This document shows, piece after piece, positions 3,519 through 32,000 of a stretch of DNA of 32,000 bases. The translations under genes were made by a program, and so were the position numbers. Position 1 is the stretch's first letter. Every line of letters begins with the position of its first letter. Below the pieces are notes generated by a model. The model did not search any database, was not told the origin of the DNA, and was given only the letters and a program-made list of their open reading frames with translations. Origin of the DNA: Telmatocola sphagniphila (GTDB taxonomy: Bacteria; Planctomycetota; Planctomycetia; Gemmatales; Gemmataceae); the NCBI RefSeq assembly GCF_018398935.1, contig NZ_CP074694.1:390001-422000 (forward strand), in the 5' to 3' direction.

Positions 3519-3521
3519 GAC

Positions 3522-6099: not shown

Positions 6100-6105
6100 G
6101 CAAAG

Positions 6106-8602: not shown

Positions 8603-10498
8603 CTACTTCGCCTTCGGCGTCCAGCCTGCGGGGATCTTCTCGCGTATGCTCTTCAACAACTTCATCTGATCGGGATCTTTGGGATCCTTGTTCGGATTAA
8701 AATCGTTAATTGATGCCGCCGCGCCTTCCTTTAAGACCTGCTTCAAGCGTTCCCAAGCCAAAAATCGCACGGCGGATTTGGAAGATTCCAGATCGGAGAG
8801 CCACTCCTGATACAGAACGGAATTCTCTTCATCCTCCTTCGCCGGGGCAATCGTCAAACGTAAGATTTGCTCGGCTTCGGTCGGCGAATATTTCTTCAAC
8901 TTGAAAATTACCGTTTGCATGAGAAGATCCAGATGCCGGGCGCTGCGATACAGCCAGACTTGTAAAGAGTATAAGGCAGCTAATCGAGAAGCTTCGCTTT
9001 CCTCCGTCGATTCGACGACCTCACTGATTTTGCTAATCGCCTTCTGTCCGATTTCGCCAATCTCACCGAACGAGGCCAGAATCAAATAGGCGATTGGCTT
9101 TAAATTCTCGTTCTTTTCCGCCTCACAACGGGCAATCACAACCTTTAATACTTCATCGCTTTTTTCGATAATATCGGCCCATTCTCTGATAGATCGCACG
9201 GCGTCCAGAACGAACTCATTCTTGGGATTCGACAGATTGGCATTCCACCAATAAGGCCAGGCGGGTAGGGGCTTCGGTCCGATCAAATTTCGCGTCTGAG
9301 GTTCCTGAAAAATCCCATTGCGACCATCCAGTGTGAACGATTTGTCGCTGCGTTTTAATAAGACAGAACCCGTGGTAAAGAAATTCACCAGAGGTTCGTT
9401 TTTCGCATCGAGTGGCTGGCCGAGTTTGGAGGCGATCAGGGGAGAAAAATAAGTCTCGACGACCACCTGGCTGGCAGCGTCTTTCAGAATTATCTCCCAT
9501 TCGGCATTTCTCATTTCGATTTTGATGCGGGCGGATCCCGAAGGTTTACCGTTATAAAAATGCAGTCGGCCGCGATCGAAAATCAAACTGGTATCGACTC
9601 CCACTTCCGGCACTTTGTGAATCCAGGAGGTTTCCAAAACCAGTGGAAGATTCTTCAATTGATCGGGCGACACAAATTCCCGGTCGAATTCGGGCAGATT
9701 GCTCAGAGCCGTGATAGCGACGCCGGTGTCGCATTGAATCTGGCAGCGAAAGCCGGGCAGTGCCAGTAATAATTGTCCGAACTCAACCCGGCCATTATTC
9801 GCAACGGGAGCCCAGGCGTAAGGCTCTCCGGGCCATTGAAGCAACGTACCTGGAAAAGCTTCGTCTTTTTTGATCAATCGGCCCACCGAGGGGGGAACCG
9901 CCTTGGCGATGGGGGCAGACTCGGTTTTATTGGCATTGGTCGAGGCGGCGGCTTTAGAAAATTCGGGAGCGATGGCCCCGGCATCTTTGGATACCGCGTT
10001 TGGATCCACCTTCGATTTGTCGTTCTTGGCTTTACCCGTGAATTGCCAAATCAAACCAAGTCCCAAAACCAGCGCGACCGCCGCGGCGATCCGAGGAGAC
10101 ATTTTCCTGGAAGGCGAATCGTTTTGCTTCGCGGGCTGTTTTCCCTTCCTGGTCGGTTCCGGATCGGCAATGGCCCAGGCCGGGTCAAAAGCGGAAACGG
10201 TAATGGCCGGTCCGGTATAGCCGAGTTGTATGCGATCTTTCAGCTTCAAGGTCATGGGTTGATTGGGCGGCAGCATTTTATCGTTGAGCAGTGTGCCGTT
10301 GCTGGAGGCCGCATCCATGATCGTCAGTTTGTTTTCCTGAAATTGAATGACAGCATGATTCCAGGAGACGCCTTTCCCCGCTTCTCCTTCGAACGCGACT
10401 GCGCTCTCCGGATCCCGTCCGATCGAAACGAGCGATTTCGAGGACTCGACCGAGCGGGTTTTTCCGCCGATGTCTTGAATGGACAGTCGAATTTTCAT
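8603..10498 (-). CDS. FHA domain - single TM - large extracytoplasmic domain protein
   Basis: Start chosen at the complement ATG at 10496..10498 (MKIRLSIQD), 2 nt after the upstream gene's stop. The N-terminal FHA domain reads SIGRDPESAVAF...VSWNHAVIQFQENKLTIMDAASSNGTLLNDK...DRIQLGYTGP. The TM is IAAAVALVLGLGLIWQF. About 470 aa of unassigned C-terminal region follow. Confidence 0.8.
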   Translation of the reverse strand: MKIRLSIQDIGGKTRSVESSKSLVSIGRDPESAVAFEGEAGKGVSWNHAVIQFQENKLTIMDAASSNGTLLNDKMLPPNQPMTLKLKDRIQLGYTGPAITVSAFDPAWAIADPEPTRKGKQPAKQNDSPSRKMSPRIAAAVALVLGLGLIWQFTGKAKNDKSKVDPNAVSKDAGAIAPEFSKAAASTNANKTESAPIAKAVPPSVGRLIKKDEAFPGTLLQWPGEPYAWAPVANNGRVEFGQLLLALPGFRCQIQCDTGVAITALSNLPEFDREFVSPDQLKNLPLVLETSWIHKVPEVGVDTSLIFDRGRLHFYNGKPSGSARIKIEMRNAEWEIILKDAASQVVVETYFSPLIASKLGQPLDAKNEPLVNFFTTGSVLLKRSDKSFTLDGRNGIFQEPQTRNLIGPKPLPAWPYWWNANLSNPKNEFVLDAVRSIREWADIIEKSDEVLKVVIARCEAEKNENLKPIAYLILASFGEIGEIGQKAISKISEVVESTEESEASRLAALYSLQVWLYRSARHLDLLMQTVIFKLKKYSPTEAEQILRLTIAPAKEDEENSVLYQEWLSDLESSKSAVRFLAWERLKQVLKEGAAASINDFNPNKDPKDPDQMKLLKSIREKIPAGWTPKAK

Positions 10499-10500
10499 CT

Positions 10501-11406
10501 TTAGCCCGCCTGCATTTTGAACCGCTGCTCGCCGAGCAGAAACTGGCAATTCCCCTCCAGGGGGATCTGCTCCACGCGGACCCAGACGCCGTTGAGAGAT
10601 TTATTGTTGACTATGAACCATCTTCCTTTGGCATCGCGATAAATGCGTGCGTGCTTGCCGTTCGCGAAAGGATCTTCCTTGGGAATGACCTGGCAATGCG
10701 GGTCGCGGCCGATCCATATTTCGGAGGTCGTGATCGGGATGCGCTGGCCTTCTCCCTGGGGGGTCAGTTCCACGATAGACGGTATCATCGCCAGAGCGCC
10801 CGTATCCTGCCAGGACACGGTCATGCCCGATTGGGATTTCTCCGCCGGTACGGTACTTTCCCCTTTGGCGCTGTCGAACCGGTAGTGCGTGCGACCGATT
10901 AGAAATTCTTGTCGGTTGTGGAGAATTCCGCTGCCGACGCGTACGAAGCTGCCATTGGTGCTGCCCAGATCGCTGAGGATCCATCGCCAATTCTCGCGGT
11001 TTTTTTGGCGTATCAATTCCGCGTGTTTCGTGGAAATCATCGCGTCATGAGGAATTTGAATGTCTCCCTCTGTTCGACCTATTACGATGCGATCTTTCAT
11101 GAGCCGGTGCCAGGTACCGTCTTCGCCCAAATCATCCAATACACAAAGCGAGGCCATCGGCGGCCGATTGGTCGGCTGGAAAAGTTGGGGCTCATACAAA
11201 GGAGCGGGTTTGGGAGAAACGTCGATCCAACCCGCCGTCGGGGCAGTTTCTGGTGTTGGGACGATGGCAGCGGGTTTAGGAATCGCAGGTTTTGGATCGG
11301 GAGCACTGGTAGGTTTAACACCCAATTTGCGAGCCGCTATCGCTGCTCGGATATCTTCGTCCGATTCGAGAAAGGTGGATTCTCTTTTGGGAATATTCGG
11401 GTTCAC
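10501..11406 (-). CDS. Cytoplasmic protein with Pro/Thr-rich N-terminus and two FHA domains
   Basis: The GTG start overlaps the upstream stop (GTGA). FHA-1 reads VIGRTEGDIQIPHDAMISTKHAELIRQ...LSDLGSTNGSFVRV. FHA-2 reads WIGRDPHCQVIPKEDPFANGKHARIYRDAKGRWFIVNNKSLNGVWVRV. Confidence 0.85.
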   Translation of the reverse strand: MNPNIPKRESTFLESDEDIRAAIAARKLGVKPTSAPDPKPAIPKPAAIVPTPETAPTAGWIDVSPKPAPLYEPQLFQPTNRPPMASLCVLDDLGEDGTWHRLMKDRIVIGRTEGDIQIPHDAMISTKHAELIRQKNRENWRWILSDLGSTNGSFVRVGSGILHNRQEFLIGRTHYRFDSAKGESTVPAEKSQSGMTVSWQDTGALAMIPSIVELTPQGEGQRIPITTSEIWIGRDPHCQVIPKEDPFANGKHARIYRDAKGRWFIVNNKSLNGVWVRVEQIPLEGNCQFLLGEQRFKMQAG

Positions 11407-12723: not shown

Positions 12724-12732
12724 ACTTAACCC
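12724..12732. repeat. Target-site duplication (left) of IS copy 1: ACTTAACCC
   Basis: The identical 9-mer directly flanks the other IS end at 14198..14206. Confidence 0.85.
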
Positions 12733-14197
12733 GTAACCGCTCACACCTCGTCCTGAGATTATCGGGAATTGCTCTTGCGCTGGGGAATTAATTATCTCAT
12801 ACTCGGGGCATGGAGTCTGTCAGCGAAGAATGGCTTGTTCGCCAAACGCCGGAAGTTCAGGCTGTGCTGCGGATTCTTTTGAACCGCATCGCCGAACTGG
12901 AAGCGAAGCTCGGCAAGGATTCCAGCAACTCTTCGAAGCCGCCTTCAACGCAACATCCCCACGCCAAGCTTTCGAAGCAAGCCCAAAAGAAGGCCAAACG
13001 GAAGTCGGGCGGCCAACCGGGGCATCCCAAACACGAACGCTCTTTGGTTTCCGCACACGAGTGCGACGGCGTCATTGTTTGTTTACCGGCCGAATGCCGC
13101 CGTTGTGGCGAACCTTTGAACGGAACAGATCCCCAGCCTTTGCGTCATCAGGTCTGGGAGATTCCCGAAATCAAGCCTTCGATTACGGAATATCAACTCC
13201 ATCGTCTGCGCTGTTCGTGCGGCAAGACCACCTGCGGAGAATTACCCCCAGGCGTGCCTGTCGGAATGGCCGGGCCTCGATTGGTTGCTTTGTCCGCTTT
13301 GTTGATGGTCTGCTTCCGGCTCTCCAAACGACGCTGCGCCCTGTTTCTGGAACAAATCCTGGGTCAGGAGGCTTCGGCTTCCTGGATGATCAAACTGCAG
13401 AACCGAGCCGCCGAAGCCTTGCAAGCCCCCTACCAGGAGTTGGCCTTAGCCTTGCCTGGGGAAGCGGTCCTCAACGGCGACGAATCGCCCACCAAAGAAG
13501 GGCTCGCCAAAGCCTGGACCTGGACTTTTGTAGCCGCGACTTTCAGCGTCTTCGCTCTCCGCACCAGCCGCAAAGCCCAGGTGGTCCTCGAATTCCTGGG
13601 CGATTCATTTACCGGCGTTCTAGGCTGCGACCGGGCCAAGATGTATTGGGCTTTCGGACGCTTGCAGTGGTGCTGGGCTCATTTGCTCCGCGACTTCCAA
13701 AGCCTCATCGATCGCCCCTGTCCGGTCGCTCGACGCTTAGGACACGACTTGCAACGACAGACTCGGGCGATGTTCGAACTCTGGAATCGCGTTCGGGACG
13801 GAACCCTCAGCCATAAAGCGTTCGGCGAACAAATGATCCCCATACGAAGCGAAGTCGAAGCCTTGCTCTTGCGAGGAAAATTCGATCCGAAGCTGCGTGG
13901 CTTTTGCTCCGAACTCTGGAAATACCGGGCTCGGCTTTGGACGTTCGTCGATGTCGAAGGAGTAGAGCCCACCAATAATGCCGCCGAGCGGGCTTTGCGG
14001 CCCGCGGTCATTTGGCGGAAGTTATGCTTTGGAACCCAATCGGCCCAGGGGAGTCGGTTCGTTGAACGAATGCTGACCGCGATCGAAACTTGTCGTCAGC
14101 AGAAACGGAACTCATTCGCCTGGATGACTCAAGCGGTACAGGCTCACTTTGCCCAAGAGAAAGCCCCTTCTCTCTTGGCCAGGGCGTGAGTTATTAC
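12733..14197 (+). mobile_element. IS66-family insertion sequence, single-ORF (ISBst12-like) type, copy 1, 1,465 bp
   Basis: Ends were defined by where the two copies in this window stop matching. The termini are GTAACCGCTCAC... and ...GAGTTATTAC, giving GTAA/TTAC tips and imperfect IRs (GTAAnnnCTCACnCC shared). It is flanked by a 9-bp direct repeat. Confidence 0.93.
12810..14189 (+). CDS. IS66-family transposase
   Basis: 459 aa. It has an N-terminal leucine-zipper-like helix (LRILLNRIAELEAKL), a Cys-rich zinc-finger region (CRRCGEPL...CSCGKTTCG), DESP, CWAHLLRDF and TNNAAERALRPAVIWRKLCFG motifs characteristic of IS66 TnpC. The protein is identical to the second copy. Confidence 0.93.
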   Translation: MESVSEEWLVRQTPEVQAVLRILLNRIAELEAKLGKDSSNSSKPPSTQHPHAKLSKQAQKKAKRKSGGQPGHPKHERSLVSAHECDGVIVCLPAECRRCGEPLNGTDPQPLRHQVWEIPEIKPSITEYQLHRLRCSCGKTTCGELPPGVPVGMAGPRLVALSALLMVCFRLSKRRCALFLEQILGQEASASWMIKLQNRAAEALQAPYQELALALPGEAVLNGDESPTKEGLAKAWTWTFVAATFSVFALRTSRKAQVVLEFLGDSFTGVLGCDRAKMYWAFGRLQWCWAHLLRDFQSLIDRPCPVARRLGHDLQRQTRAMFELWNRVRDGTLSHKAFGEQMIPIRSEVEALLLRGKFDPKLRGFCSELWKYRARLWTFVDVEGVEPTNNAAERALRPAVIWRKLCFGTQSAQGSRFVERMLTAIETCRQQKRNSFAWMTQAVQAHFAQEKAPSLLARA

Positions 14198-14206
14198 ACT
14201 TAACCC
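14198..14206. repeat. Target-site duplication (right) of IS copy 1: ACTTAACCC
   Basis: Matches 12724..12732 exactly. Confidence 0.85.
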
Positions 14207-14440: not shown

Positions 14441-17302
14441 CTAATTACGGATCCACTTGACTTCTTTGTCGTATGTGGACACACCAAGAAGTTGATTGGG
14501 ATTATCGGGGTCAATAACCATCGATTCGTGGCCGTTGGCCATGATAACCCGAATCAACCCTCCCTCGCGGACCCACTTGCAATAAGTTCCGTTCCAGTCC
14601 CGAACGGTGCCATTCTCCAGTACCGTGCGAACGTTCTGAAAATTCCTAGGCGAAGTGATAAACTTCCATTTCCCGAGAAAGTTGAAATCTTTCAAATCAT
14701 TCCGCATCCGTTTGAGTACAACTCGGGATGTGCTTTCATTCACTTTGTCCTCAACAACGAGATCGATTCGAGTAGCTGTCACATAACCAGAGCCCTCAAT
14801 AGCTTGGCGTTCAGCCATCTTGGGGGCACTGACAGTTCTAGCCTCAAGCGAGATTTTTCCCGAAGCATCGATCTTACCCTCGAACGTGGCTTGAAATCCG
14901 GAGTCCGTGCGCCACAGGGCTTTAAATTGTTCGCCCTCCCGATTGAGAATCGACCAACTGCCGCAGATCGTGGAAGTGCCTATTTGGCCGCGCCTTCTTT
15001 GAATGGTTCCCAAGCCTGCCCATTCGGATTTTAAAGGAGCTAAGATATCAGTCGCGGTCGAAGGGGAATTCAATTCCTTGATCTCGATGTTGCGAAACCG
15101 CGCCTCCTTATACGTTTTCAAAAGCCCGATGCGGCCATCTTTTCGATTCAGAGCCGGAACCGTGTTATCCTTGAAAACAACTCCCTCGGTGATACTGGTA
15201 TCTGTGACTAACTTGTCGTTAATCGTGGCTCGCAAAGTCCGTCCGTTGACTTCGATCTCTAACTTGTTCCAGTTGCCCGGTGAAGTCAACTGTGCACTGT
15301 TCTTAGGTCTGACGTGGGTGCTCGCGAGCACCCAATGCAATGTCCCGGTGATCTCACTTCCACCCGGCTGATCTTCCAGCATGAACACAGGGTGCTCGCG
15401 AATGCTAACCCCTTGAGGATGCGGCAGCAATTCCCCCGGGACGGCGCGCAAAACCACTCCACTGGCGGCATGATCGTTCAAATTGAACTCAAGTCTCAAG
15501 ATGAAGTTGTCATAAGATTTGTTTGTAAGCAAATAGCCAAGTCGCTGCGAATTCGTGCCACGAGCCAGAAGAACCCCATTCTCGATCGACCAGTCTTTGG
15601 AATCCGAGTATTCCATGCTCCATCCCGAAAGATCTTTACCATTGAACAAAGGCACAAACCCGTCGCCAGAGCTCTTGGAAGCCCAATCCGCATCGTTACC
15701 AACTTTTGGACTCTCTTTCTTATCGTTTGCCTCTTCTCTCGCTTGCATTGCTTCCAATCGAACTGAGATCGTTTTGCTTCGGCCAACCTCCACTTCCAAT
15801 TCTTTGCCGAAAACTTTGAAGCCCTCCTTTTTCACTTCGAGATTATGTTTCTTCTCTCCGGAAATAGTGATCTCGATGGGTTTACCTTCCCTGGGGGAGA
15901 TCGTCAGTTTATTTCCATCCACCGTGACTTCGGCATCTTCCGGCACATTTTCGAGAACAATGATACCGTCCTTGGTTTTGACGCGCAACACCCCCGAAGC
16001 GGCCAGAATACCAAAACCGACTAAGAGCAAGGCCAACACGCCAATGAGTACAGGCCATTTTCTTCTCGGCTGGGTTACCTGGATTAGGGACCTGCTGGAG
16101 CGGGATTTGGATTCCTCCTGGATGTCCTGAAATGGTAAGACTTCCCGCTCGATTTTTGAATTTTCGGTAACTTCCTTTTGAACAGTCTCCCCCTTGGAGA
16201 GCTTCACCAGTCCCTCGATGACTTCTTTGGGTGTTTGCGGTCGATCGGCGGACTTCGAGGCCATCATTTTCTGGATGAACTGCGACAATTCTGGCGAGAC
16301 ATCGTTACGAAGCAAGCAGACGTCGGGCCGGGGATCTTCCCAATGCTTGAAAATCAGATCGGCTAGTGAGATGCCATCGAACGGCGGCCTGCCTGTCAGC
16401 AGGAAGTAGAAGGTGCAGCCGAGGGAATAGATGTCCGCCCGGATGTCGGCGGTTTTCGCATCGCGAGCCTGCTCCGGAGCCATGTAATCCGGCGTTCCCA
16501 TAATCGCATTGGTACCCGTCAGACTGCGGCCTCTTCCCTTTTCCGATTCCCGATTGAACTTGGCCAGCCCGAAGTCTGCCACTTTGATCGTACCGGCGCG
16601 AGTCAGCATCAGATTGCCTGGCTTGATGTCCCGATGCACTAGCGATTTGAGCATGCCGTGCTGCAGTCCCTGAGCGGCCTGACGAATGAAATTGATCGCG
16701 TGAGCCACCGGCAGTGGTCCTTTGGTTTTCACCACTTCGCTCAGATCTTTGCCGTCAACATACTCCATCTCGAAGAGCATGTAGGGACCGAATTCTTCGG
16801 CCGAGTAGGCCCGTACCACGTTCGCGTGTTCCAGCGCGGCCGCCGAGACGACTTCCTGAAGAAATCGTTCTCGAATCGAGGCATTTCCTATCATTTCCGG
16901 CGGAATCAGTTTGACGGCGACCTTCCGCTTCATCAAGTTGTGCATGGCCAGCCAGACGATCCCCATGCCGCCGCCGCCGAGCTTTTTCAGGAAGGTGTAT
17001 CTCGTCTGCTGTCGTAACTCGAGGGGTAATTCCTCGGTGTTGAGAGGATTGGAATCGGCTTTTGGGGCACCGGTCAGACTCGAACCGGCTTTGGCTTTCT
17101 TCAGAATGCCCAGGAAGGTGTCGCGCGGCGTCTTGGCCAGCAGAGTTTCGCACCGAACGCAGTTGGCGACATGCTCGGCGATTGTTTCCGCGTTTGAAAC
17201 TTCCTTCCCCAATGCGAAAGCTGCCAATTCTTCGTTGGCGGGATGATCCGAGGCGCTCTTGAAAGGGCTCATGTGCGAGTTCTCTAATTCGCAAAATAGC
17301 AT
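14441..17302 (-). CDS. Receptor Ser/Thr protein kinase K1: HX3CX2C N-terminal motif - kinase - TM - PEGA-like - DUF1080 - unassigned 209-aa C-terminal domain
   Basis: - Kinase motifs are intact: LGGGGMGIVW, VAVKLI, HRDIKPGNLML, VADFGLAK, GTPDYMAPE.
- The N-terminal motif is HVANCVRC.
- The TM is WPVLIGVLALLLVGFGILAASGVL.
- The PEGA-like segment is VLENVPEDAEVTVDGNKL.
- The DUF1080 (PF06439) signature is GFVPLFNGKDLSGW...FRNIEIKEL. Confidence 0.92.
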   Translation of the reverse strand: MLFCELENSHMSPFKSASDHPANEELAAFALGKEVSNAETIAEHVANCVRCETLLAKTPRDTFLGILKKAKAGSSLTGAPKADSNPLNTEELPLELRQQTRYTFLKKLGGGGMGIVWLAMHNLMKRKVAVKLIPPEMIGNASIRERFLQEVVSAAALEHANVVRAYSAEEFGPYMLFEMEYVDGKDLSEVVKTKGPLPVAHAINFIRQAAQGLQHGMLKSLVHRDIKPGNLMLTRAGTIKVADFGLAKFNRESEKGRGRSLTGTNAIMGTPDYMAPEQARDAKTADIRADIYSLGCTFYFLLTGRPPFDGISLADLIFKHWEDPRPDVCLLRNDVSPELSQFIQKMMASKSADRPQTPKEVIEGLVKLSKGETVQKEVTENSKIEREVLPFQDIQEESKSRSSRSLIQVTQPRRKWPVLIGVLALLLVGFGILAASGVLRVKTKDGIIVLENVPEDAEVTVDGNKLTISPREGKPIEITISGEKKHNLEVKKEGFKVFGKELEVEVGRSKTISVRLEAMQAREEANDKKESPKVGNDADWASKSSGDGFVPLFNGKDLSGWSMEYSDSKDWSIENGVLLARGTNSQRLGYLLTNKSYDNFILRLEFNLNDHAASGVVLRAVPGELLPHPQGVSIREHPVFMLEDQPGGSEITGTLHWVLASTHVRPKNSAQLTSPGNWNKLEIEVNGRTLRATINDKLVTDTSITEGVVFKDNTVPALNRKDGRIGLLKTYKEARFRNIEIKELNSPSTATDILAPLKSEWAGLGTIQRRRGQIGTSTICGSWSILNREGEQFKALWRTDSGFQATFEGKIDASGKISLEARTVSAPKMAERQAIEGSGYVTATRIDLVVEDKVNESTSRVVLKRMRNDLKDFNFLGKWKFITSPRNFQNVRTVLENGTVRDWNGTYCKWVREGGLIRVIMANGHESMVIDPDNPNQLLGVSTYDKEVKWIRN

Positions 17303-23186: not shown

Positions 23187-23187
23187 T

Positions 23188-26016
23188 CTAGCTATCCAGA
23201 ATCCAATCGACGGGAGTCGCGGGCAGTTCTGGCAGTCCATCGAAAAGTAACTTGCCTTCTGGAGTGGTCACACGGAAGTTGCGAAATTTTGCCGCGGTGC
23301 GCCAGGTACGCACGCCAATGCCTCCTTCGGGATTTCGATCTGTTTGAAAATCGAAGGCAGCCTCGTTATCGATGAACCCTTGGAATCGATTGCCGCGCAC
23401 GCGAATTTCCAACTTGTACCATTGGTTGTCCGCCATTGGATTGGTCCTCCGTTCTCGCATACGTTTACGGTCGGATCCTACCAGGGAAACGGCCGATTCC
23501 ACCAGACCTATGTAACGGCCCAGGATGAATTCACTTCGGCCATCATTATTTGCACGATAAACTAGTCCAGCCTCGCCGCGACCACTGATTTTCATGACCT
23601 CGCAGCTAAAGTCATAATTCTTCCAATTTTTATCGCCGAAAATCAGCGTGGAGTCTCCAAAGTCCGGGGACTGTTGAAGCAATTCCCCGTTCACGATCGT
23701 CCAATCTCCGGGTGCATTTTTGAAGCTCTGACGAAGTTTAGGATCGACGCTCGGAACTCGCGGCTCATTTTTTTCAGGGAGGTTGAACTGAAGATCCTGT
23801 GGCAGTTCCTTAATTTCGATGTTGCGATAGCGAATATCACCCGTTCGCTTTAAAAGGCCGATGCGACCGGAGTATCGTCTCAGACCGGGATTTAGTAAGC
23901 TTGGCTGGGCTATTTTATTTAGCATAACATTCTGTAATTCTTGACCATTGACTGACATGCGAAAAGATTGGCCCTTAAGTTCTATCTCCAATTCGTTCCA
24001 TTCGCCTAAATTCTTTAAATTGCATCGATTATCCGGTAACAGTATCGGAGAGCTACCCATGTATGCCACTGACCACCACAACGAACCTGTAGGGAAATTC
24101 GTAGTTGTCGAATTTTCAAGAAATGCCGTGAGATGCAAGGGTTGATTATTTCCAGTTATCCTGGACGGATCGGTGTTGCTAGCGCGTTCTCCGGGTACTG
24201 CACGAAAGGCGATACCACTCAGAATTTCTTTAGATAGTTGTTGAAATTGACATCGCAGAATGAAATCCTTGTAATCTCTATCTGACAAAAGATAACTCTG
24301 ATCCTGAAGCGCATACCACCCGCTTTCCGAGGCAAGACCGTGCACCGTCAAAGTCCCCTCTTGCACTTTCCAGGCGTTCACATCTCCACTATCCACGACC
24401 CATCCGGTTAAATCTTTGCCATTAAATAGCGAAACGAATCCGTCTTGAGACTTCGTTTCCAATCGAGACGAAAATAGCTTCTTTCCACCGGGCTCAATCG
24501 CGAACTTCTCACTCAAAATGGTCAATTCCCCACTGCGAATTTCGATTTTATGTTGTTTTCGAGCCGTGACGCGCAATTCGATAGGCTGATCCTTTTTGGG
24601 CACAAAGTTGATCTTTTCGCCATCGATGGTGACTTCGGCATTTTCCGGAAAGTTCACCAAGGAGATTGTGCCGTCTCCGGTTTTGAACCAGAACAGACCT
24701 GCAGTAGTGAGAAGTCCCAGAGTTGCAAAAATAATCACCGCACTAACAATAGTTGGCCTTCTCGTTTTCAGCTTGCGATTCTCACTGACTTCAAGCTCCT
24801 TTTTCGGTTGACTTGGGAGGGTATCGGAAACTACCGTTTTGTTCCGCCCGGAATCAGATCCGACGAGAGTTTCCGATTTGGACTTCATTCCGTTCGTTAT
24901 CACGGGGGCAGATTGAAGGTCTGCACTGAACCTGTTAAGCCCATCGATAACTTCTTTGGGTGTCTGCGGTCGATTCGCGGGGTCCTTGTCCATCATTTTT
25001 TGAACGAACCGAGCCAACTCCTCGGGAACATCGTTTCGCAACACAGACACATCCGGTCGGGGATCCTCCCAGTGCTTAAAAATCAGATCGGCCAGCGAAA
25101 CGCCATCGAAGGGCGGCTTGCCCGTCAGCAAGAAGTAAAAGGTGCAACCGAGGGAGTAGATGTCGGCTCGAATATCGGCGGTTTTCGCATCCCTTGCTTG
25201 TTCCGGGGCCATGTAATCGGGCGTACCCATGATGGCATTCGTACCGGTGAGGCTGCGACCTCGCGACTTATCTGTTTCTCGACTAAATTTCGCCAGACCG
25301 AAGTCAGCCACCTTGATAGTTCCATTGCGTGTCAGCATCAAGTTGCCTGGCTTGATATCCCGGTGCACCAGCGATTTCCCCATGCCATGCTGCAAAGCCT
25401 GCGCGGCCTGACGAATATATTTCAGTGCATGAGCTACCGGCAGGGGACCTTTGAGCTTCACGACCTCGCTCAAATCTTTACCATCCACGAACTCCATCTC
25501 GAAAAGCATGTAGGGACCGAATTCTTCGGCGGCGTAGGCCCTGACGACATTCGGGTGTTCCAGGGCCGCGGCCGAGACGACTTCTTGCAAGAATCTATCT
25601 CGCACCGTCGGATTGCCGATCATCTCGGGCGGAATCAATTTCACGGCCACCTTGCGTTTCATCAGGTTGTGCTCGGCGAGCCAAACTACTCCCATGCCTC
25701 CGCCGCCGAGCTTTTTCAGAAAGGTATATTTCGTCTGTTGTCGCAACTCGAGCGGCAACTCTTCACTGGGAACAACCGTTGATTTCGCGATTTGAGATCC
25801 CGTTAAACTGGACCCGGGTTTGGCTTTGTTGAGAATGCCCAGGAAGGTGTCTCGGGGAGTTTTGGCTATCAGGGTTTCGCAGCGGGCACAATTGGCCACG
25901 TGCTCGGCAATCGTTTCCGCGTTGGGAATTGCCTTTCCCAAAGCAAAAGCAGCCAGTTCCTCGTTGGCGGGATGATTCGGAGGGGTATTCTGAGTCTTCA
26001 CAAGCGAGTTCTCCAA
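23188..26016 (-). CDS. Receptor Ser/Thr protein kinase K3: HX3CX2C N-terminal motif - kinase - TM - PEGA-like - two DUF1080 domains
   Basis: The N-terminal motif is HVANCARC and the kinase motifs are intact. The TM is IVSAVIIFATLGLLTTAGLFWF, and the PEGA-like segment is LVNFPENAEVTIDGEKI. DUF1080 number 1 is GFVSLFNGKDLTGW...YRNIEIKEL. DUF1080 number 2 is GDWTIVNGELL...WYKLEIRVRGNRF...KFRNFRVTT. The start is TTG at 26016. Confidence 0.92.
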   Translation of the reverse strand: MENSLVKTQNTPPNHPANEELAAFALGKAIPNAETIAEHVANCARCETLIAKTPRDTFLGILNKAKPGSSLTGSQIAKSTVVPSEELPLELRQQTKYTFLKKLGGGGMGVVWLAEHNLMKRKVAVKLIPPEMIGNPTVRDRFLQEVVSAAALEHPNVVRAYAAEEFGPYMLFEMEFVDGKDLSEVVKLKGPLPVAHALKYIRQAAQALQHGMGKSLVHRDIKPGNLMLTRNGTIKVADFGLAKFSRETDKSRGRSLTGTNAIMGTPDYMAPEQARDAKTADIRADIYSLGCTFYFLLTGKPPFDGVSLADLIFKHWEDPRPDVSVLRNDVPEELARFVQKMMDKDPANRPQTPKEVIDGLNRFSADLQSAPVITNGMKSKSETLVGSDSGRNKTVVSDTLPSQPKKELEVSENRKLKTRRPTIVSAVIIFATLGLLTTAGLFWFKTGDGTISLVNFPENAEVTIDGEKINFVPKKDQPIELRVTARKQHKIEIRSGELTILSEKFAIEPGGKKLFSSRLETKSQDGFVSLFNGKDLTGWVVDSGDVNAWKVQEGTLTVHGLASESGWYALQDQSYLLSDRDYKDFILRCQFQQLSKEILSGIAFRAVPGERASNTDPSRITGNNQPLHLTAFLENSTTTNFPTGSLWWSVAYMGSSPILLPDNRCNLKNLGEWNELEIELKGQSFRMSVNGQELQNVMLNKIAQPSLLNPGLRRYSGRIGLLKRTGDIRYRNIEIKELPQDLQFNLPEKNEPRVPSVDPKLRQSFKNAPGDWTIVNGELLQQSPDFGDSTLIFGDKNWKNYDFSCEVMKISGRGEAGLVYRANNDGRSEFILGRYIGLVESAVSLVGSDRKRMRERRTNPMADNQWYKLEIRVRGNRFQGFIDNEAAFDFQTDRNPEGGIGVRTWRTAAKFRNFRVTTPEGKLLFDGLPELPATPVDWILDS

Positions 26017-26193: not shown

Positions 26194-26985
26194 TCAAGAT
26201 TGCGATTCTTTTTTCTTGGCGATCAACTTTATAACGCTATCGGCGAAGGCATTTCCCATATCGACCAGACCACTCGTGGTGTAGTGCAAGTTGTCTGAAC
26301 CTTTTTTGAAATTATCGCAGTCTATAAAAGCGTAACTCAGCTCTTTGCAGTTCTCGATAGCTTTACGAACCTTAGCTTCGAACGGAAATTTATTCGTGGG
26401 AGGATTGACCCGACCCGCAACAAAAATTAATTCAGGATTGGCTAAATCCTTTCTGGCCCGGCGAATGAACGATTGCAAATTCCCCGCATAGGAACTGGCC
26501 ATTTTCTGATCCTTCGAATCGGCTTCCCCTTGCATCCAGAGCATACCGACGATCTCGATTTTCCTAATCTTCTTCGCATCATTTACTTTCTTAATCAGTT
26601 CTGTGTATAGAGATTTTGCATTTGTCGGCGACCATTGGATGGCTAGGTTGGTTCCTCCAATACTATGCTTGATAATTCCGATAGGCATTTTAAGCTCCTC
26701 GGTGATTTTGTGTCCGAACGCGATTTCAGGACCGAAACCGGTCTTCTCTGTTCTGCCAGGTACCAGTGAAATCCACTTGCCCTCGGAAAAGAACAATGCG
26801 TTTTCCTGTTCTTTCTTGAGTTCCGGAGGCAACTCGGAGATAACGGCTCCTGCCCCAACCATATTCGACTGGCCTGCCAAGACAAACACTTTCAGCGGTT
26901 TCGAGTCCTGCGCGGCGGCTTCGGAATTGCTCGACCTAGCTGCGATGATCAACAAACAACAGAGACGAAAAATGCACTTGGTCAT
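26194..26985 (-). CDS. Secreted sialate O-acetylesterase-like (SASA/DUF303, SGNH-type) carbohydrate esterase
   Basis: Start chosen at the complement ATG at 26983..26985, giving a signal peptide (MTKCIFRLCCLLIIAARSSNSEAAA). The VFVLAGQSNMVGAG catalytic-Ser block, WMQGEADS and HYTTSGLVDMGNAFA are typical of the family. Confidence 0.7.
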   Translation of the reverse strand: MTKCIFRLCCLLIIAARSSNSEAAAQDSKPLKVFVLAGQSNMVGAGAVISELPPELKKEQENALFFSEGKWISLVPGRTEKTGFGPEIAFGHKITEELKMPIGIIKHSIGGTNLAIQWSPTNAKSLYTELIKKVNDAKKIRKIEIVGMLWMQGEADSKDQKMASSYAGNLQSFIRRARKDLANPELIFVAGRVNPPTNKFPFEAKVRKAIENCKELSYAFIDCDNFKKGSDNLHYTTSGLVDMGNAFADSVIKLIAKKKESQS

Positions 26986-27120
26986 CGATTTTCTCCGTCT
27001 TAAACTCTCCGGCACTCCCAATTTGAGTGCCGGAGAGTTTAAGATTCTGATTTTGGGTTTTTCTAACAAGGTCCTGAATTGAACTTTGCCTGTAAGTGAG
27101 GGAGTCGAAAGTCGTTTGGC

Positions 27121-28341
27121 TCAGCCTTTAATTTTCGCGAGTGTTTCCCCCGCTTGTTCGCGGATCGAATTCTTGGGATCTTGAAGAAGGATTTGAACCA
27201 TAGGCACGGCCGCCTTCGCCTCCGGTCCGAAATCGGCCAGTCCTTCCAGAGCACTCATCCGAACATCCCCATCCATGTCCTTCAATGCATCCATCAGCGC
27301 CGGCACTGCCACCGAGGGATTTTTCCCAATCGCCCCCAACGCTTCCACGGCCGACAGACGAACATGAACCTGCTTATCTTTAACCAATTTCACCAGCGAC
27401 GGCACGGCCGGCTCCGCCTCCTCACCAATTTGCCCGAGCGATTCCGCGGCCGCCGCTCGTACCTCGGCATTCTTATCTTCCAGAAGATCCTGCAAACGGG
27501 GCACGGCCGCTTTCGCCTTTTCCCCAAACTTACCGATCGCTTCCGCCGACGCGGCTCGCAGGTCTTCGGAAGGCTCTTTCAGACTGGCAATCAAGACCAG
27601 CAATCCATTCTCAGCGGCCGGACCGATATTTCCGAGGGCCTCGGCACAACTGATTCGCACGGCCGGATTACGATTCGAATCGGACAGCAACTTGCAAAGA
27701 ATCGGCACGGCTTTCACGGCATCCGGACCAATCTTCCCGAGCGATTCCGCGGCGGTCGCTCGTAATTCGGGTCCTTCCTCCGGACTATTGGACTTGCTGC
27801 GAATATCGATGTCGAGAATCGCGATCAATGCCGGCACGGCCTCCTTGGCCTGCGGTCCCACTCGACCCAGGCCTCGGGCGATCAAAGTACGAACAGCGGT
27901 AGGATTTGCTCGCTCATCCCGAAGCATTTTCACCAGAGTCGGCACCTGCTGGTAGGCCGCTTCGCCCATACCGCCCAGAGCATCCGCCGCCACCCCGCGA
28001 AGGCGAGGTTTGTCATCGCTCAGTGCGGCCACCAGTTCCGGAACGGTTTCCTTGGCCTCCTCGCCGATACTGGAAATCAGTTCGATCGCCAGAATTCGGA
28101 CTTCCTTGTCGCTATGGTGAATGACTTTGCATAGGGAGGGAACCAATTTCTTATTGGTACTGGCTCGCTCCAGCACTTTATCTGCGCGATTGTGCGTCGG
28201 GTTATCGTCGCTATGAAGATCTTTGAGCCATTTGCTGATCGGCTTGCCTTCCAGGACCGGATCGATCTGGGGATCTTCCGCCTGGGCCGAAGAAACAATC
28301 GAGGTCAAAAATATGCAAAGAATAGCTATTGGCTTGTTCAT
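27121..28341 (-). CDS. Secreted HEAT-repeat (PBS-lyase HEAT-like) protein
   Basis: There is a signal peptide (MNKPIAILCIFLTSIVSSAQA). About ten units follow, each roughly 30-40 aa, of the form VRxxAAEALGxIGxxAxxAVPxLxxLLxD. Confidence 0.8.
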   Translation of the reverse strand: MNKPIAILCIFLTSIVSSAQAEDPQIDPVLEGKPISKWLKDLHSDDNPTHNRADKVLERASTNKKLVPSLCKVIHHSDKEVRILAIELISSIGEEAKETVPELVAALSDDKPRLRGVAADALGGMGEAAYQQVPTLVKMLRDERANPTAVRTLIARGLGRVGPQAKEAVPALIAILDIDIRSKSNSPEEGPELRATAAESLGKIGPDAVKAVPILCKLLSDSNRNPAVRISCAEALGNIGPAAENGLLVLIASLKEPSEDLRAASAEAIGKFGEKAKAAVPRLQDLLEDKNAEVRAAAAESLGQIGEEAEPAVPSLVKLVKDKQVHVRLSAVEALGAIGKNPSVAVPALMDALKDMDGDVRMSALEGLADFGPEAKAAVPMVQILLQDPKNSIREQAGETLAKIKG

Positions 28342-28377
28342 GAGATTAGCCCTTTCAATTCAGTGGATTGGGGGTCT

Positions 28378-28770
28378 TTAATGGAACGGTATGATTCGAA
28401 CTTCAAAACCTTGTGAGCGCAGCAGGTGAGCGACCCCAGCCGCAGCGCCTCGATTGTGGGCGATCGATTGATTTCTCCAGCGCGGCATCTTGGCCACGAC
28501 AACATGCCCTTTATGATCGCGTTTGATATGGGTGATCCAGCCCTGACGATTCAGATGATGGGCCAGCCGATGGGCCGCTTCCGAACTTGGGACATGATGG
28601 AGAACCGGCCGCGGATGTCGGATTTGAATCCGAAACTTTTGCACGACATGGGGCTTGGGGGGTGCCTTTTTCTGAGCGTAAGCTGGGGAAGGGGCCCCGA
28701 GGCTTGCTACGAGAAGCCCCGCCATCAGAATTCCCAGAGCCAAGGATTTACGAACAACCAATAACTTCAT
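28378..28770 (-). CDS. Small secreted His/Arg-rich hypothetical protein (possible SPOR-like fold)
   Basis: Start chosen at the complement ATG at 28768..28770, giving a signal peptide (MKLLVVRKSLALGILMAGLLVASLGAPSPAYA). It lies 36 nt upstream of the HEAT gene on the same strand. The SPOR-like beta-alpha-beta-beta pattern is only a weak by-eye impression. Confidence 0.45.
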   Translation of the reverse strand: MKLLVVRKSLALGILMAGLLVASLGAPSPAYAQKKAPPKPHVVQKFRIQIRHPRPVLHHVPSSEAAHRLAHHLNRQGWITHIKRDHKGHVVVAKMPRWRNQSIAHNRGAAAGVAHLLRSQGFEVRIIPFH

Positions 28771-29084
28771 GGATATCTCCCGGCGGTAATGTTTTCGATC
28801 CGTAAGTAAAATGCAGACCAACTCCCATTCTCACGGATAAAAATAAATTTAAATAAATGGAGTTTGAGAACGCATGGCTCGAGGCGATGTCAAAACTAAC
28901 GCTTATGCAGCCCGGGCATTTTTTGCATACTGCATCGACCACCAACTCAATATTCTCTGCGGAAATAGCGTTCAATCCAGGAGATTTGGCAAGCGTTATC
29001 GCCTTGGAATTCTGCAGTAGTCGTGAATCAGTCCGTCAGCGAACCTTGAAGTTTCCGTAAGTGGAATTTCCGGTGCCGGCGGAT

Positions 29085-29873
29085 TTAGGGCTTAGCATCG
29101 GAATCTTCATTCAATTCTTTGATTTCAATATTTCGATAATGGACTTCCCCAACCCGCTTCATAAACCCGATCCGGCCGTAAAAACGGTTTAGACCTGGCA
29201 CGAATTTTTGGGGTCGAGAAACCTTGTTCAGCATGACATTTTGGATTTCGGTCCCATTTAAAGTCATACGGAGAAATTGCCCCTTCAACTCAAGCTCGAA
29301 ATCGTTCCACTCACCCGGTTTTCGAAGATCAATTAATCGATCTGGAGGTAGGAAGGGCATGGGGCCAACTGTCCAAAGAAGAGCACCGGGAACAAACGCG
29401 TTCGATTGAGTCGGAGAACGCTTGCCGACAATGGCCGTTAAATGCCAGGGGATATTTTCTGTCCAAAGTGGTTCGACGCATTGAACGGTTTCGTGAGGTA
29501 TCGCGCGGAGTGCAACCCCGCTCCAATCGTAGGGTCCATTAGCTTGCAGGAACTGAAACCGAAGAACAAAATCTTTATAGTCCTTAGTGGAAAATAGATA
29601 TCCCTGAGTTTTGAGTGTGGCCTCAGTGTCATCGGCTACTCCGATGGCGCACAATTCCCCCTCCTTGATCGCCCAACTACTCGGTGCGCCACTTTCGACT
29701 TCCCAGCCTGTAAAATCCTTCCCATTAAAAATTGAGACGAAACCGCCCTGGTGTTTCGTCGAATTGCCGTCCAGGGATTGGATCTGAATGCTCTTTCGAC
29801 TTCCCGGATCGACCTCGAACTCCTCACCGAAAATTATCCCTTTGCTGGTCAGGACTTCCAGTCGATGTTTTTG
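29085..29873 (-). pseudogene. 3' fragment of receptor Ser/Thr kinase K4 (second half of PEGA-like domain plus DUF1080), separated from its 5' part by IS copy 2
   Basis: It translates as QKHRLEVLTSKGIIFGEEFEVDPGSRKSIQIQS...GFVSIFNGKDFTGW...HYRNIEIKELNEDSDAKP*, colinear with the K3 ectodomain. The ORF-track ORF 29085..29981 owes its first 36 codons to IS sequence. Confidence 0.85.
29865..29873. repeat. Target-site duplication of IS copy 2: ATGTTTTTG (encodes QKH on the minus strand)
   Basis: The identical 9-mer lies at 31339..31347, directly flanking the other IS end. Confidence 0.85.
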
Positions 29874-31338
29874 GTAATAACTCACGCCCTGGCCAAGAGA
29901 GAAGGGGCTTTCTCTTGGGCAAAGTGAGCCTGTACCGCTTGAGTCATCCAGGCGAATGAGTTCCGTTTCTGCTGACGACAAGTTTCGATCGCGGTCAGCA
30001 TTCGTTCAACGAACCGACTCCCCTGGGCCGATTGGGTTCCAAAGCATAACTTCCGCCAAATGACCGCGGGCCGCAAAGCCCGCTCGGCGGCATTATTGGT
30101 GGGCTCTACTCCTTCGACATCGACGAACGTCCAAAGCCGAGCCCGGTATTTCCAGAGTTCGGAGCAAAAGCCACGCAGCTTCGGATCGAATTTTCCTCGC
30201 AAGAGCAAGGCTTCGACTTCGCTTCGTATGGGGATCATTTGTTCGCCGAACGCTTTATGGCTGAGGGTTCCGTCCCGAACGCGATTCCAGAGTTCGAACA
30301 TCGCCCGAGTCTGTCGTTGCAAGTCGTGTCCTAAGCGTCGAGCGACCGGACAGGGGCGATCGATGAGGCTTTGGAAGTCGCGGAGCAAATGAGCCCAGCA
30401 CCACTGCAAGCGTCCGAAAGCCCAATACATCTTGGCCCGGTCGCAGCCTAGAACGCCGGTAAATGAATCGCCCAGGAATTCGAGGACCACCTGGGCTTTG
30501 CGGCTGGTGCGGAGAGCGAAGACGCTGAAAGTCGCGGCTACAAAAGTCCAGGTCCAGGCTTTGGCGAGCCCTTCTTTGGTGGGCGATTCGTCGCCGTTGA
30601 GGACCGCTTCCCCAGGCAAGGCTAAGGCCAACTCCTGGTAGGGGGCTTGCAAGGCTTCGGCGGCTCGGTTCTGCAGTTTGATCATCCAGGAAGCCGAAGC
30701 CTCCTGACCCAGGATTTGTTCCAGAAACAGGGCGCAGCGTCGTTTGGAGAGCCGGAAGCAGACCATCAACAAAGCGGACAAAGCAACCAATCGAGGCCCG
30801 GCCATTCCGACAGGCACGCCTGGGGGTAATTCTCCGCAGGTGGTCTTGCCGCACGAACAGCGCAGACGATGGAGTTGATATTCCGTAATCGAAGGCTTGA
30901 TTTCGGGAATCTCCCAGACCTGATGACGCAAAGGCTGGGGATCTGTTCCGTTCAAAGGTTCGCCACAACGGCGGCATTCGGCCGGTAAACAAACAATGAC
31001 GCCGTCGCACTCGTGTGCGGAAACCAAAGAGCGTTCGTGTTTGGGATGCCCCGGTTGGCCGCCCGACTTCCGTTTGGCCTTCTTTTGGGCTTGCTTCGAA
31101 AGCTTGGCGTGGGGATGTTGCGTTGAAGGCGGCTTCGAAGAGTTGCTGGAATCCTTGCCGAGCTTCGCTTCCAGTTCGGCGATGCGGTTCAAAAGAATCC
31201 GCAGCACAGCCTGAACTTCCGGCGTTTGGCGAACAAGCCATTCTTCGCTGACAGACTCCATGCCCCGAGTATGAGATAATTAATTCCCCAGCGCAAGAGC
31301 AATTCCCGATAATCTCAGGACGAGGTGTGAGCGGTTAC
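29874..31338 (-). mobile_element. IS66-family insertion sequence, copy 2, 1,465 bp, inverted relative to copy 1
   Basis: It has the same termini and length as copy 1. The transposase and all overlapping alternative-frame and antisense ORF translations in the track are identical between copies, which implies nucleotide identity across the coding region. Confidence 0.93.
29882..31261 (-). CDS. IS66-family transposase (identical to 12810..14189)
   Basis: The 459-aa translation is identical to copy 1. Confidence 0.93.
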   Translation of the reverse strand: MESVSEEWLVRQTPEVQAVLRILLNRIAELEAKLGKDSSNSSKPPSTQHPHAKLSKQAQKKAKRKSGGQPGHPKHERSLVSAHECDGVIVCLPAECRRCGEPLNGTDPQPLRHQVWEIPEIKPSITEYQLHRLRCSCGKTTCGELPPGVPVGMAGPRLVALSALLMVCFRLSKRRCALFLEQILGQEASASWMIKLQNRAAEALQAPYQELALALPGEAVLNGDESPTKEGLAKAWTWTFVAATFSVFALRTSRKAQVVLEFLGDSFTGVLGCDRAKMYWAFGRLQWCWAHLLRDFQSLIDRPCPVARRLGHDLQRQTRAMFELWNRVRDGTLSHKAFGEQMIPIRSEVEALLLRGKFDPKLRGFCSELWKYRARLWTFVDVEGVEPTNNAAERALRPAVIWRKLCFGTQSAQGSRFVERMLTAIETCRQQKRNSFAWMTQAVQAHFAQEKAPSLLARA

Positions 31339-31347
31339 ATGTTTTTG
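31339..31347. repeat. Target-site duplication of IS copy 2: ATGTTTTTG
   Basis: Matches 29865..29873 exactly. Confidence 0.85.
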
Positions 31348-32000
31348 GCCGCTGGAAACTTCAATTTCAATTTGTTTAGAATTCTTCGTATCGATGGATT
31401 GGATTTTACCGTCGACCTTGATCTGCGAGCCTTCGGGGAGGCTCTCTAAAACCAAAACTCCCTGTTTGGCTCTCATTCTGAATCGGTCGCTGAACTGCAA
31501 GAGCACTATACCGACTAGGAGTGCGACGATTCCCACTCCAAAAAACACAAAACTCCCTGGGCGTCGGAGTTTTGTGTTTTTTAATGGCATCAGGAGGGAC
31601 GATTTCGAATGTTGGGGGGCTAATTTTGGGGGGTCAAGTTCTACTTGCAATAAATTAGCTTCTCGGGGTTCTCCCTCCGCGCGAGGCAGCTCCGGATTTT
31701 CTTTTCTCTTCGGTTCCGCCTTGGAAACTCTCGTCAATTCCTCGATCACTTCTTTGGGAGATTTTGGTCGATCGGACGGTTCGATGGCCATCATTTTCTG
31801 GATGCACTGGGCGAGTTCTTTTGAGACATCGTTCCAAAGTTCCGAAACATCGGGTCGGGGATCCTGCCAATGCTTGAAAATCAGATCGCCTATGGATTCT
31901 CCGGAAAAAGGAGGTTGACCAGTCAGAAGAAAATAAAAGGTACATCCCAACGAATAGATGTCGGCTCGGATATCCGCATCCTTGGTATTGCAGGCTTGTT
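31339..32000 (-). pseudogene. 5' fragment of receptor Ser/Thr kinase K4 (kinase C-lobe, TM, first half of PEGA-like domain); N-terminus lies beyond the window edge
   Basis: The frame is open to position 32000 (…QACNTKDADIRADIYSLGCTFYFLLTGQPPF…), colinear with K1 to K3. The TM is FVFFGVGIVALLVGIVLLQF and the PEGA-like segment is LESLPEGSQIKVDGKI. After GQKH the frame runs into the IS end and stops after 7 foreign codons (VTAHTSS*, stop at 31315..31317). Confidence 0.85.

Follow-up and report, generated by a model that had tools for sequence, protein, structure and literature searches.

The 32,000-nt stretch analyzed here of the genome of Telmatocola sphagniphila, a planctomycete of peat bogs that belongs to the Gemmataceae (contig NZ_CP074694.1, positions 390,001 to 422,000; hereafter the window) encodes, from position 8,603 to its right edge, a group of receptor Ser/Thr kinases (STKs) together with proteins that carry FHA domains. 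We interpret this region as a lineage-expanded copy, perturbed by insertion sequences (IS), of a conserved planctomycetal phospho-threonine (pThr) signalling cassette, and assign a probability of roughly 0.6 to this interpretation. In total, the window contains three intact receptor STKs and one that is split by an IS, as well as five FHA domains distributed over three genes. The genes of the cassette are as follows (coordinates are those of the window).

8603-10498, minus strand: FHA-transmembrane (FHA-TM) protein; Pfam FHA, 55 bits; start ATG at 10498, 631 aa
10501-11406, minus strand: double-FHA adaptor FHA2_301 (2xFHA); Pfam FHA in two stretches, 78 bits
11403-12401, minus strand: P332, a 332-aa protein with a signal peptide and without an assigned family; searches of Pfam, NCBIfam and PDB gave nothing
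14441-17302, minus strand: receptor STK K1; Pfam Pkinase, 164 bits
17414-20335, minus strand: receptor STK K2; Pfam Pkinase, 167 bits
20856-23186, plus strand: FHA-FHA-ABC half-transporter; Pfam FHA in two stretches, 110 bits, with ABC_tran and ABC2_membrane
23188-26016, minus strand: receptor STK K3; Pfam Pkinase, 164 bits
29085-29873, minus strand: C-terminal part of K4 (end of PEGA, and DUF1080); Pfam 3keto-disac_hyd
31348 to beyond 32000, minus strand: N-terminal part of K4 (kinase C-lobe, juxtamembrane region, transmembrane segment and start of PEGA); partial Pfam Pkinase match; the gene continues past the right edge of the window

Conserved linkage of kinases and FHA genes

Because STKs are so abundant in the Gemmataceae, gene neighbourhoods were compared, and the linkage of kinase, FHA and ABC genes proved to be conserved in both related and distant genomes. 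At seven of the nine loci with a planctomycete-type orthologue of the ABC transporter (43-52% identity), kinases of the same family as K1-K4 lie directly upstream on the same strand (L001, L003, L164, L165, L166, L170 and L171). A further 19 distant FHA-ABC homologues (31-35% identity) were recovered from metagenomes by tblastn, and a Hanks-type kinase occurs in the flanks of 14 of them.

The double-FHA adaptor is a second conserved element. Full-length orthologues (35-70% identity) are encoded directly upstream of either an FHA-FHA-ABC gene or an FHA-TM gene in L002, L165, L166, L084, L141, L167, L168 and L169. Those linked to the ABC transporter (about 300 aa, 35-41% identity) immediately precede it in L002, L165, L166 and L084, and an orthologue is near the ABC gene, without adjoining it, in L001, L164 and L170. 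In L141 the adaptor gene overlaps by 4 bp an ABC gene whose product shares only 33% identity with its counterpart in the window. The order P332, 2xFHA, FHA-TM is also retained, in L167, L168 and L169, where the P332 homologues occupy the same position (51, 27 and 49% identity, respectively). The trio of L167 is 50-67% identical to that of the window and is directly preceded by a kinase 68% identical to K1; in L168 the identity is 25-45%, and the trio is flanked by a sigma factor and kinases on both sides. Thus, judging from these sequences, there are two output modules, one consisting of 2xFHA and the ABC transporter and the other of P332, 2xFHA and FHA-TM, and each recurs in association with this kinase family. 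The window holds the P332-2xFHA-FHA-TM module complete, and only the ABC gene of the other.

Given the 98-140 STKs reported per Gemmataceae genome (PMC11032199), tandem duplication in a kinase-rich genome combined with IS activity could have placed kinases beside unrelated FHA genes, with no functional coupling between them. We estimate that about 0.3-0.4 STKs would be expected per 18 kb, where four are observed; tandem duplication accounts for this count, and it is the conserved synteny that is not explained by chance. Such an accident is consistent with K1-K4 being recent paralogues, with the two identical IS copies in the region, with the location of the ABC gene on the opposite strand and with the lack of kinases in L002 and L087. 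We nevertheless consider it improbable, as the kinases directly upstream at the seven ABC loci belong to the same family although protein identity is only about 50% and the other neighbours differ, as kinases flank the majority of the distant homologues, and as a K1-like kinase precedes the same trio in L167. Moreover, each IS copy has its own target duplication, so the region has not been rearranged by them.

Receptor kinases

K1-K3 score 164-167 bits against the Pfam Pkinase model, for which the gathering cutoff is 31.7, and are thus of Hanks type. The G-loop and the VAVK, HRD, DFG and APE motifs are all intact. Their cytoplasmic parts share 67-71% pairwise identity, in agreement with the prediction of four paralogous receptor kinases on one strand, of which the fourth is split by an IS. 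A single hydrophobic stretch follows the kinase domain (415-440 in K1, 412-434 in K2 and IVSAVIIFATLGLLTTAGLFWF in K3), and we infer that each protein crosses the membrane once, with the kinase in the cytoplasm and a sensor domain outside it.

In K1, an N-terminal head resembling ZAS anti-sigma factors precedes the Pkinase domain (residues 102-357), the transmembrane segment (about 415-440), PEGA and DUF1080 domains and a C-terminal extension; DUF1080 has the 3-keto-disaccharide-hydrolase fold. The head and kinase of K2 are as in K1 (67% identical), and its ectodomain of about 540 aa is different and unannotated, with no lectin-like match in Pfam and nothing found in a sequence search of PDB. 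The start of K2 is probably the ATG at 20320; in L172 the gene call is 968 aa long. K3 has the ZAS-like head, Pkinase domain, transmembrane segment and DUF1080, followed by a second lectin-like jelly-roll domain (Glyco_hydro_59_C/DUF1080-like). The two parts of K4, which lie in ORFs at 29085-29981 and at 31315 to beyond 32000, are 44% identical to residues 483-741 of K3 (C-terminal part) and 48-51% identical to K1 and K2 (N-terminal part). Excision in silico of the IS that interrupts it, together with one 9-bp target duplication, yields a continuous frame, which agrees with the earlier claim that an IS splits the gene; judged by its reading frame, K4 is inactivated by this insertion.

The expectation that the kinases carry lectin-like periplasmic sensors is therefore justified for K1, K3 and K4, which have PEGA and DUF1080, and does not extend to the ectodomain of K2. 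That planctomycetal STKs can have a periplasmic DUF1080 has been published before (PMC11032199). Kinases of the related loci have FGE-sulfatase, C-type lectin, ricin or WD40 domains in this position. One conserved cytoplasmic module with exchanged ectodomains fits the multi-input design that had been suggested for the system.

FHA proteins and candidate phosphorylation sites

The five FHA domains are located where they had been placed, one in the FHA-TM protein, two in the adaptor and two in the ABC transporter; a six-frame signature scan revealed no others. The residues that bind pThr (GR, S-x-x-H and N) are kept in these domains with one exception, the second FHA domain of the adaptor, in which N replaces the S of S-x-x-H. 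The FHA domain of the FHA-TM protein and the first FHA domain (FHA1) of the ABC transporter are of the same subtype (34-38% identical), and the planctomycetal FHA1 type carries S-x-N-[KR]-T instead of N-G-T. It had been noted that two FHA domains in different genes share the block DRIQLGYTGP, and this had been attributed to local duplication of a module. The block is indeed present in both proteins. However, the consensus reads GDRIRLGYTGP among the ABC orthologues and GDRIQLGYTGP among members of the FHA-TM family, and the two domains of the window are only 34% identical; a block that belongs to both family consensuses, GDRI[QR]LGYTGP, points to an old shared domain type rather than to local duplication.

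The ABC protein consists of FHA1, a linker containing T129, a second FHA domain (FHA2), a nucleotide-binding domain (ABC_tran, 263-410) and an ABC-2/ABCG-like transmembrane domain (ABC2_membrane, 537-715), which is the architecture of Rv1747 of Mycobacterium tuberculosis. Its best NCBIfam match is TIGR00955, the ABCG/White-type family, with a score under the cutoff of that model. One database protein, from T. sphagniphila itself, is 100% identical to it. Homologues number 4588 at E<=1e-10. The best of the matches listed are about 50% identical, and the few named organisms among them are Gemmataceae, Isosphaeraceae and 'Planctomycetaceae' metagenome-assembled genomes. T129 is invariant in an alignment of 17 ABC orthologues and is a candidate phospho-acceptor. 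The gene is divergent from K2, with a gap of 520 bp, and convergent with K3, with a gap of 1 bp. With 1 nt between the stop codons of the ABC gene and K3 (23186-23190), there is no room for terminators, and transcriptional interference is possible. Two other FHA proteins were observed near ABC orthologues: a 463-aa FHA-FHA-ABC2_membrane protein that lacks a nucleotide-binding domain (L001:15658-17049) and a 578-aa FHA-STAS-FHA-STAS protein (L002:14622-16358).

The adaptor has a disordered, Pro-rich N-terminus followed by its two FHA domains, and is predicted to be soluble. Its gene overlaps each of its neighbours by 4 bp. The N-terminal motif R-x-x-T-x-L-E-[ST]-D-[ED]-[ED]-I-[RK] includes T11, which is invariant in the alignment of 11 orthologues, and likewise in L141, and which is the candidate phospho-acceptor of the adaptor. 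P332, encoded by the first gene of the trio, is predicted to be secreted or periplasmic, with a Sec-type signal peptide, and is rich in coiled coil.

The FHA-TM protein had been considered part of a trans-envelope complex, for which it provides no evidence. It is a single-pass protein whose FHA domain is cytoplasmic. A transmembrane segment (about 138-153) leads to a periplasmic beta domain (about 204-410), and ARM/HEAT repeats follow (about 428-621). All four elements are visible in AlphaFold2 models, with a predicted local distance difference test (pLDDT) value of 78 when the whole protein is modelled and of 86 when the ectodomain is. A Foldseek search with the full-length model recovered FHA domains only, and a model of the ectodomain alone was used for fold assignment. 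With this model, the nearest matches of the beta domain are the periplasmic domains of the FecR-type regulators PupR (6OVK; E=3.8e-3, target-normalised template-modelling score 0.49) and BDI_1681, both marginal, and ARM repeats are matched by the helical part. Pfam does not assign FecR to the protein. The predicted fold of the ectodomain is therefore FecR-like at a marginal level only.

The family to which this ectodomain belongs has 401 representatives, including members fused to zf-HC2-Pkinase (P0145, P0147 and P0201), and its sequences suggest that it is a widely reused periplasmic sensor module. Since the same ectodomain occurs on zf-HC2-Pkinase proteins, the FHA-TM protein looks like a receptor in which the kinase head has been exchanged for an FHA reader. 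The family was also observed on a caspase (Peptidase_C14) protein of 1047 aa (P0278) and on a PEGA-containing protein of 887 aa (P0272).

An anti-sigma-like head and a dedicated sigma factor

In 18 of 19 kinases from the window and seven related loci, the motif H-x3-C-x2-C occurs about 60-100 residues ahead of the G-loop. An alignment of 18 kinase N-termini has only four invariant columns, H9, H33, C37 and C40. The corresponding signature is H20...H44-x3-C48-x2-C51 in K1 and H15..H39-C43-C46 in K2 and K3, and all three conform to the ZAS signature, H/C-x23-26-H-x3-C-x2-C. A profile of the kinase N-termini compared with PDB matched the ZAS anti-sigma factors ChrR (2Q1Z, E=9.8e-8), RslA (3HUG, 4.8e-6) and DdvA (8RLZ, 3.3e-5). 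The four invariant residues align with H6, H31, C35 and C38 of ChrR, the zinc ligands of that protein. The Pfam zf-HC2 model is matched by 14 of 18 members of the kinase family. As the family profile matches ZAS anti-sigma factors, the ZAS label is right at the level of the family, and the earlier description of the kinases as ZAS-STK-DUF1080 proteins is right for K1, K3 and K4.

A single family of extracytoplasmic function (ECF) sigma factors, with members 55-70% identical, is encoded at the head of the kinase arrays in four related loci (L003:879-1460, L164:43-624, L168:2133-2765 and L165:4583-5128), and degraded remnants are found in L166, L170 and L001. When the regions ahead of the sigma genes in L003, L165 and L168 were searched for a common bipartite promoter of the ECF type, only GC-rich chance pairs were obtained. 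The anti-sigma-like head probably tethers this dedicated sigma factor, as far as sequence comparison can indicate. On reading by eye, two members have EASD or ESSD at the usual 'DAED' position of ECF sigma factors, which could be relevant to activation by phosphorylation.

These observations also allow the cassette to be read mainly as a sigma/anti-sigma system, in which the kinases are membrane anti-sigma factors by virtue of the ZAS head, phosphorylation frees or activates the ECF sigma factor, and the FHA and ABC genes are co-transcribed members of its regulon rather than direct phospho-readers. The homology of the head to ChrR, RslA and DdvA and the position of the sigma gene in the arrays fit this view, as does the published association of the planctomycetal groups ECF59, 61, 62 and 217 with STKs in the absence of a separate anti-sigma factor (PMC7826278, PMC8999054). 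It would, however, leave five FHA domains, in which the pThr-binding residues are largely intact, without a stated ligand. The linkage of FHA-ABC and kinase genes also occurs in distant loci where the kinases have no ZAS head, and it holds for PknF and Rv1747, for which direct phosphorylation has been shown (PMC3138270). The window itself is without a sigma gene. We consider a predominantly sigma-based system unlikely, and it is compatible with direct reading of pThr by the FHA domains rather than exclusive of it.

A combination of both functions can also be formulated, in which the kinases form a fused anti-sigma/Hanks class, paralogues with nearly identical heads but varied ectodomains compete for one ECF sigma factor and, via pThr, drive the GarA-like adaptor, the ABC transporter and the FHA pseudo-receptor, whose ectodomain is of a family shared with kinases. 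We put this forward tentatively, as an idea that has a chance of being right but is more doubtful than the phospho-threonine cassette as such. If true, one cassette would integrate many periplasmic inputs into transcriptional and transport outputs. The cassette may also represent a direct fusion of anti-sigma/ECF control with Hanks kinases, both of which count among the 'pillars' of signalling in bacteria.

Insertion sequences and other features of the window

The remaining features between the FHA-TM gene and the right edge of the window are the following.

12733-14197, plus strand: IS66-family copy A; Pfam DDE_Tnp_IS66, DUF6444 and zf-IS66
26194-27069, minus strand: SASA-family sialate O-acetylesterase-like gene, between K3 and K4
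27121-28341, minus strand: secreted HEAT-repeat protein of 406 aa, between K3 and K4
28378-28821, minus strand: 147-aa open reading frame (ORF), between K3 and K4
29874-31338, minus strand: IS66-family copy B, inserted in the PEGA-coding part of K4

Copy A is 1465 bp long, includes one transposase ORF (12810-14189) and lies between the stop of K1 and the start of P332. It is bordered by a 9-bp target duplication, ACTTAACCC, at 12724-12732 and 14198-14206; that of copy B, also 9 bp, is CAAAAACAT, at 29865-29873 and 31339-31347. The true ends of the element are GTAACC...GTTATTAC, with terminal inverted repeats GTAA...CTCAC. The two copies are 100% identical, which indicates recent IS activity, and are inverted with respect to each other, flanking 15.7 kb. 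The presence of a separate target duplication for each copy indicates two independent insertions. A composite transposon was rejected, as the outer ends of the two copies do not share a duplication and copy B interrupts the K4 gene; an inversion between the copies was likewise rejected, because of the two separate duplications. Copy A now stands between K1 and the FHA operon, and the order before insertion was K2, K1, P332, 2xFHA, FHA-TM on one strand. A short-read contig of 15.7 kb that carries the HEAT protein gene ends at the IS copies. A related IS66-type element (483 aa) was observed beside the cassette in L165.

Identical inverted IS copies around a block of kinase genes might instead delimit a mobile or anti-phage defence island, of the PD-T4-6 or MADS type, carried as a composite transposon. 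PADLOC does match K1-K3 to its PD-T4-6 and mad6 models, and NCBIfam to MAD6 and the BREX protein PglW. These matches are, however, confined to the kinase domain, which is generic, and with NCBIfam they fall far short of the curated cutoffs (168 versus 460 for MAD6 and 82 versus 990 for PglW). PADLOC had no match for the FHA or P332 proteins, no partner genes of such systems are present, and the kinases are of receptor type with periplasmic lectin-like domains. The GC content of the region is unremarkable, and the two separate insertions, one of them within K4, do not form a composite element. Thus, we regard a defence island as highly improbable.

The order of SASA esterase-like gene, HEAT protein gene and 147-aa ORF (26194-28821) was matched in the independent assembly L172, and no homologues of these three genes were seen in the related cassettes. 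Positions 1-8600 encode transport and metabolic functions according to Pfam. Within this part is a perfect heptanucleotide tandem repeat, CTGCTGA, with 50.3 copies and 100% matches (6245-6596), preceded by 6.3 copies of AGCTATC (6106-6149); both are in the gap after the gene for gamma-glutamyltranspeptidase. The ORFs predicted at 6189-6782 and 6241-6642 on the minus strand are artefacts of the CTGCTGA repeat, which could be a contingency or slippage locus.

Proposed mechanism and its weighing

In the mechanism that we propose, binding of a ligand to an ectodomain would activate the kinase, which would phosphorylate itself and conserved Thr sites, with T11 of the adaptor and T129 of the ABC linker as candidates. 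The FHA domains would read the pThr marks on the kinase, T11 and T129. Through this reading the ABCG-like exporter would be switched on or off, in the way that PknF controls Rv1747, and the kinase-less FHA-TM receptor would be recruited as a co-receptor or scaffold. The ZAS head would probably hold the dedicated ECF sigma factor that is encoded beside the arrays elsewhere and has no gene in the window. If it does tether the sigma factor, the same receptors would also have a transcriptional output.

A number of points weigh against reading the region as a conserved pThr signalling cassette. All function in the cassette, that is phosphorylation, binding, zinc, transport and substrate, is inferred from sequence. 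The sample of neighbourhoods is small and its loci are not phylogenetically independent, and as a Gemmataceae genome encodes 98-140 STKs (PMC11032199), single adjacencies carry little weight. No kinase is near the ABC orthologues of L002 and L087, and none was found within 10 kb at the four Streptomyces FHA-ABC loci among the matches listed. The layout of the window is atypical, as the ABC gene is on the strand opposite to all kinases, has no adjacent adaptor gene of its own and is not accompanied by an ECF sigma gene. As had been stated before, the window contains neither a PP2C phosphatase nor a sigma factor: Pfam identified none among the 28 ORFs scanned, positions 1-8600 included, and tblastn with the sigma factors of the related loci gave no match. 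A PP2C phosphatase was not seen in any of the loci. For the head, Pfam searches with the N-termini of K1-K3 alone found nothing, even at E=10, and the L167 kinase, like K1-K3, has no individual zf-HC2 score. Finally, the Foldseek scores of the FHA-TM ectodomain, including those for 4M0H and 4M0N, are marginal (E=4e-3 to 1e-2, target-normalised template-modelling scores 0.44-0.49).

To our knowledge, a substrate or output is known for almost none of the Ser/Thr kinases of the Gemmataceae. The cassette offers a concrete wiring diagram for one kinase family, with receptors, the candidate sites T11 and T129, five FHA readers and a transporter as the output, to which other genomes add a dedicated sigma factor. 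The ECF sigma factor of the cassette elsewhere, the 2xFHA gene as a conserved partner of the ABC gene and the separation of K1 from the FHA operon by copy A are points that go beyond the original prediction.

Comparison with known systems

The closest parallel to the ABC transporter of the window is Rv1747, which is phosphorylated and positively regulated by PknF (PMC3138270) and has T152 and T210 as phospho-acceptors in its linker (PMC8339232). Both proteins are half-transporters with two N-terminal FHA domains and a linker, a nucleotide-binding domain and an ABC-2-type transmembrane domain, both are linked to a Hanks kinase, and T129 is analogous to T152 and T210. The analogy drawn earlier between the window and the PknF/Rv1747 pair thus fits the architecture. 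Streptomyces FHA-FHA-ABC proteins, among the matches listed, are 33% identical to the ABC protein of the window over residues 173-714. The kinases described here differ from PknF in their ZAS-like head, in their large, lectin-like ectodomains and in forming arrays of paralogues. The cassette also adds a conserved double-FHA adaptor gene, and the ABC gene of the window is co-oriented with no kinase. The FHA1 type is not close to either FHA domain of Rv1747: compared by FHA fragments, 6CCD and 6CAH align to FHA2 only (E~1e-5). The principle of kinase-controlled, FHA-gated ABC export nonetheless reaches well beyond the Actinobacteria, given the kinases near 14 of the 19 distant homologues.

ECF sigma factors associated with STKs include ECF43 EcfP/PknT and EcfK/PknS as well as the planctomycetal ECF59, 61, 62 and 217 (PMC7826278, PMC8999054). 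In L003, L164, L165 and L168, as in these systems, the sigma gene adjoins genes for transmembrane Hanks kinases and there is no separate anti-sigma gene. Here, by contrast, the kinase itself bears a ZAS-like module, FHA proteins and an ABC transporter belong to the conserved neighbourhood, and the window has no sigma gene. The head shares the signature H-x23-H-x3-C-x2-C with the ZAS anti-sigma factors ChrR, RslA, RsrA and DdvA, but is fused N-terminally to a Ser/Thr kinase instead of to a cupin or a simple transmembrane anchor.

GarA and OdhI are FHA phospho-switch proteins of Actinobacteria, and in sequence searches of PDB the canonical FHA domains of the cassette match them best. The adaptor resembles them in being a small, soluble FHA protein and in its disordered N-terminus, where a short motif contains a strictly conserved Thr. 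It differs in having two FHA domains rather than one and in the motif itself, T-x-L-E-[ST]-D-[ED]-[ED]-I-R, and its gene is translationally coupled to that of a membrane FHA protein and not linked to genes for enzymes of the tricarboxylic acid cycle. The FHA-TM protein resembles the FecR/PupR regulators in being single-pass, and the periplasmic beta domains of that group (6OVK, 4M0H and 4M0N) are the best, if marginal, structural matches of its ectodomain. Its head is, however, an FHA domain instead of an anti-sigma domain, ARM/HEAT repeats follow the beta domain, and no TonB-dependent transducer is encoded nearby.

The suggestion that the combination had not been described before needs qualification. 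The pairing of an STK with an FHA-FHA-ABC transporter is the PknF/Rv1747 paradigm (PMC3138270), and planctomycetal pairs of ECF sigma factors and STKs are published predictions (PMC7826278, PMC8999054). In the searchable literature we found no description of a kinase-fused ZAS module, or of an anti-sigma-fused kinase that occurs together with a double-FHA adaptor bearing an invariant Thr and with an alternative FHA pseudo-receptor. Thus, each pairing, of STK with FHA-ABC and of ECF sigma factor with STK, has a precedent, and the conserved combination is the part for which we found none there.

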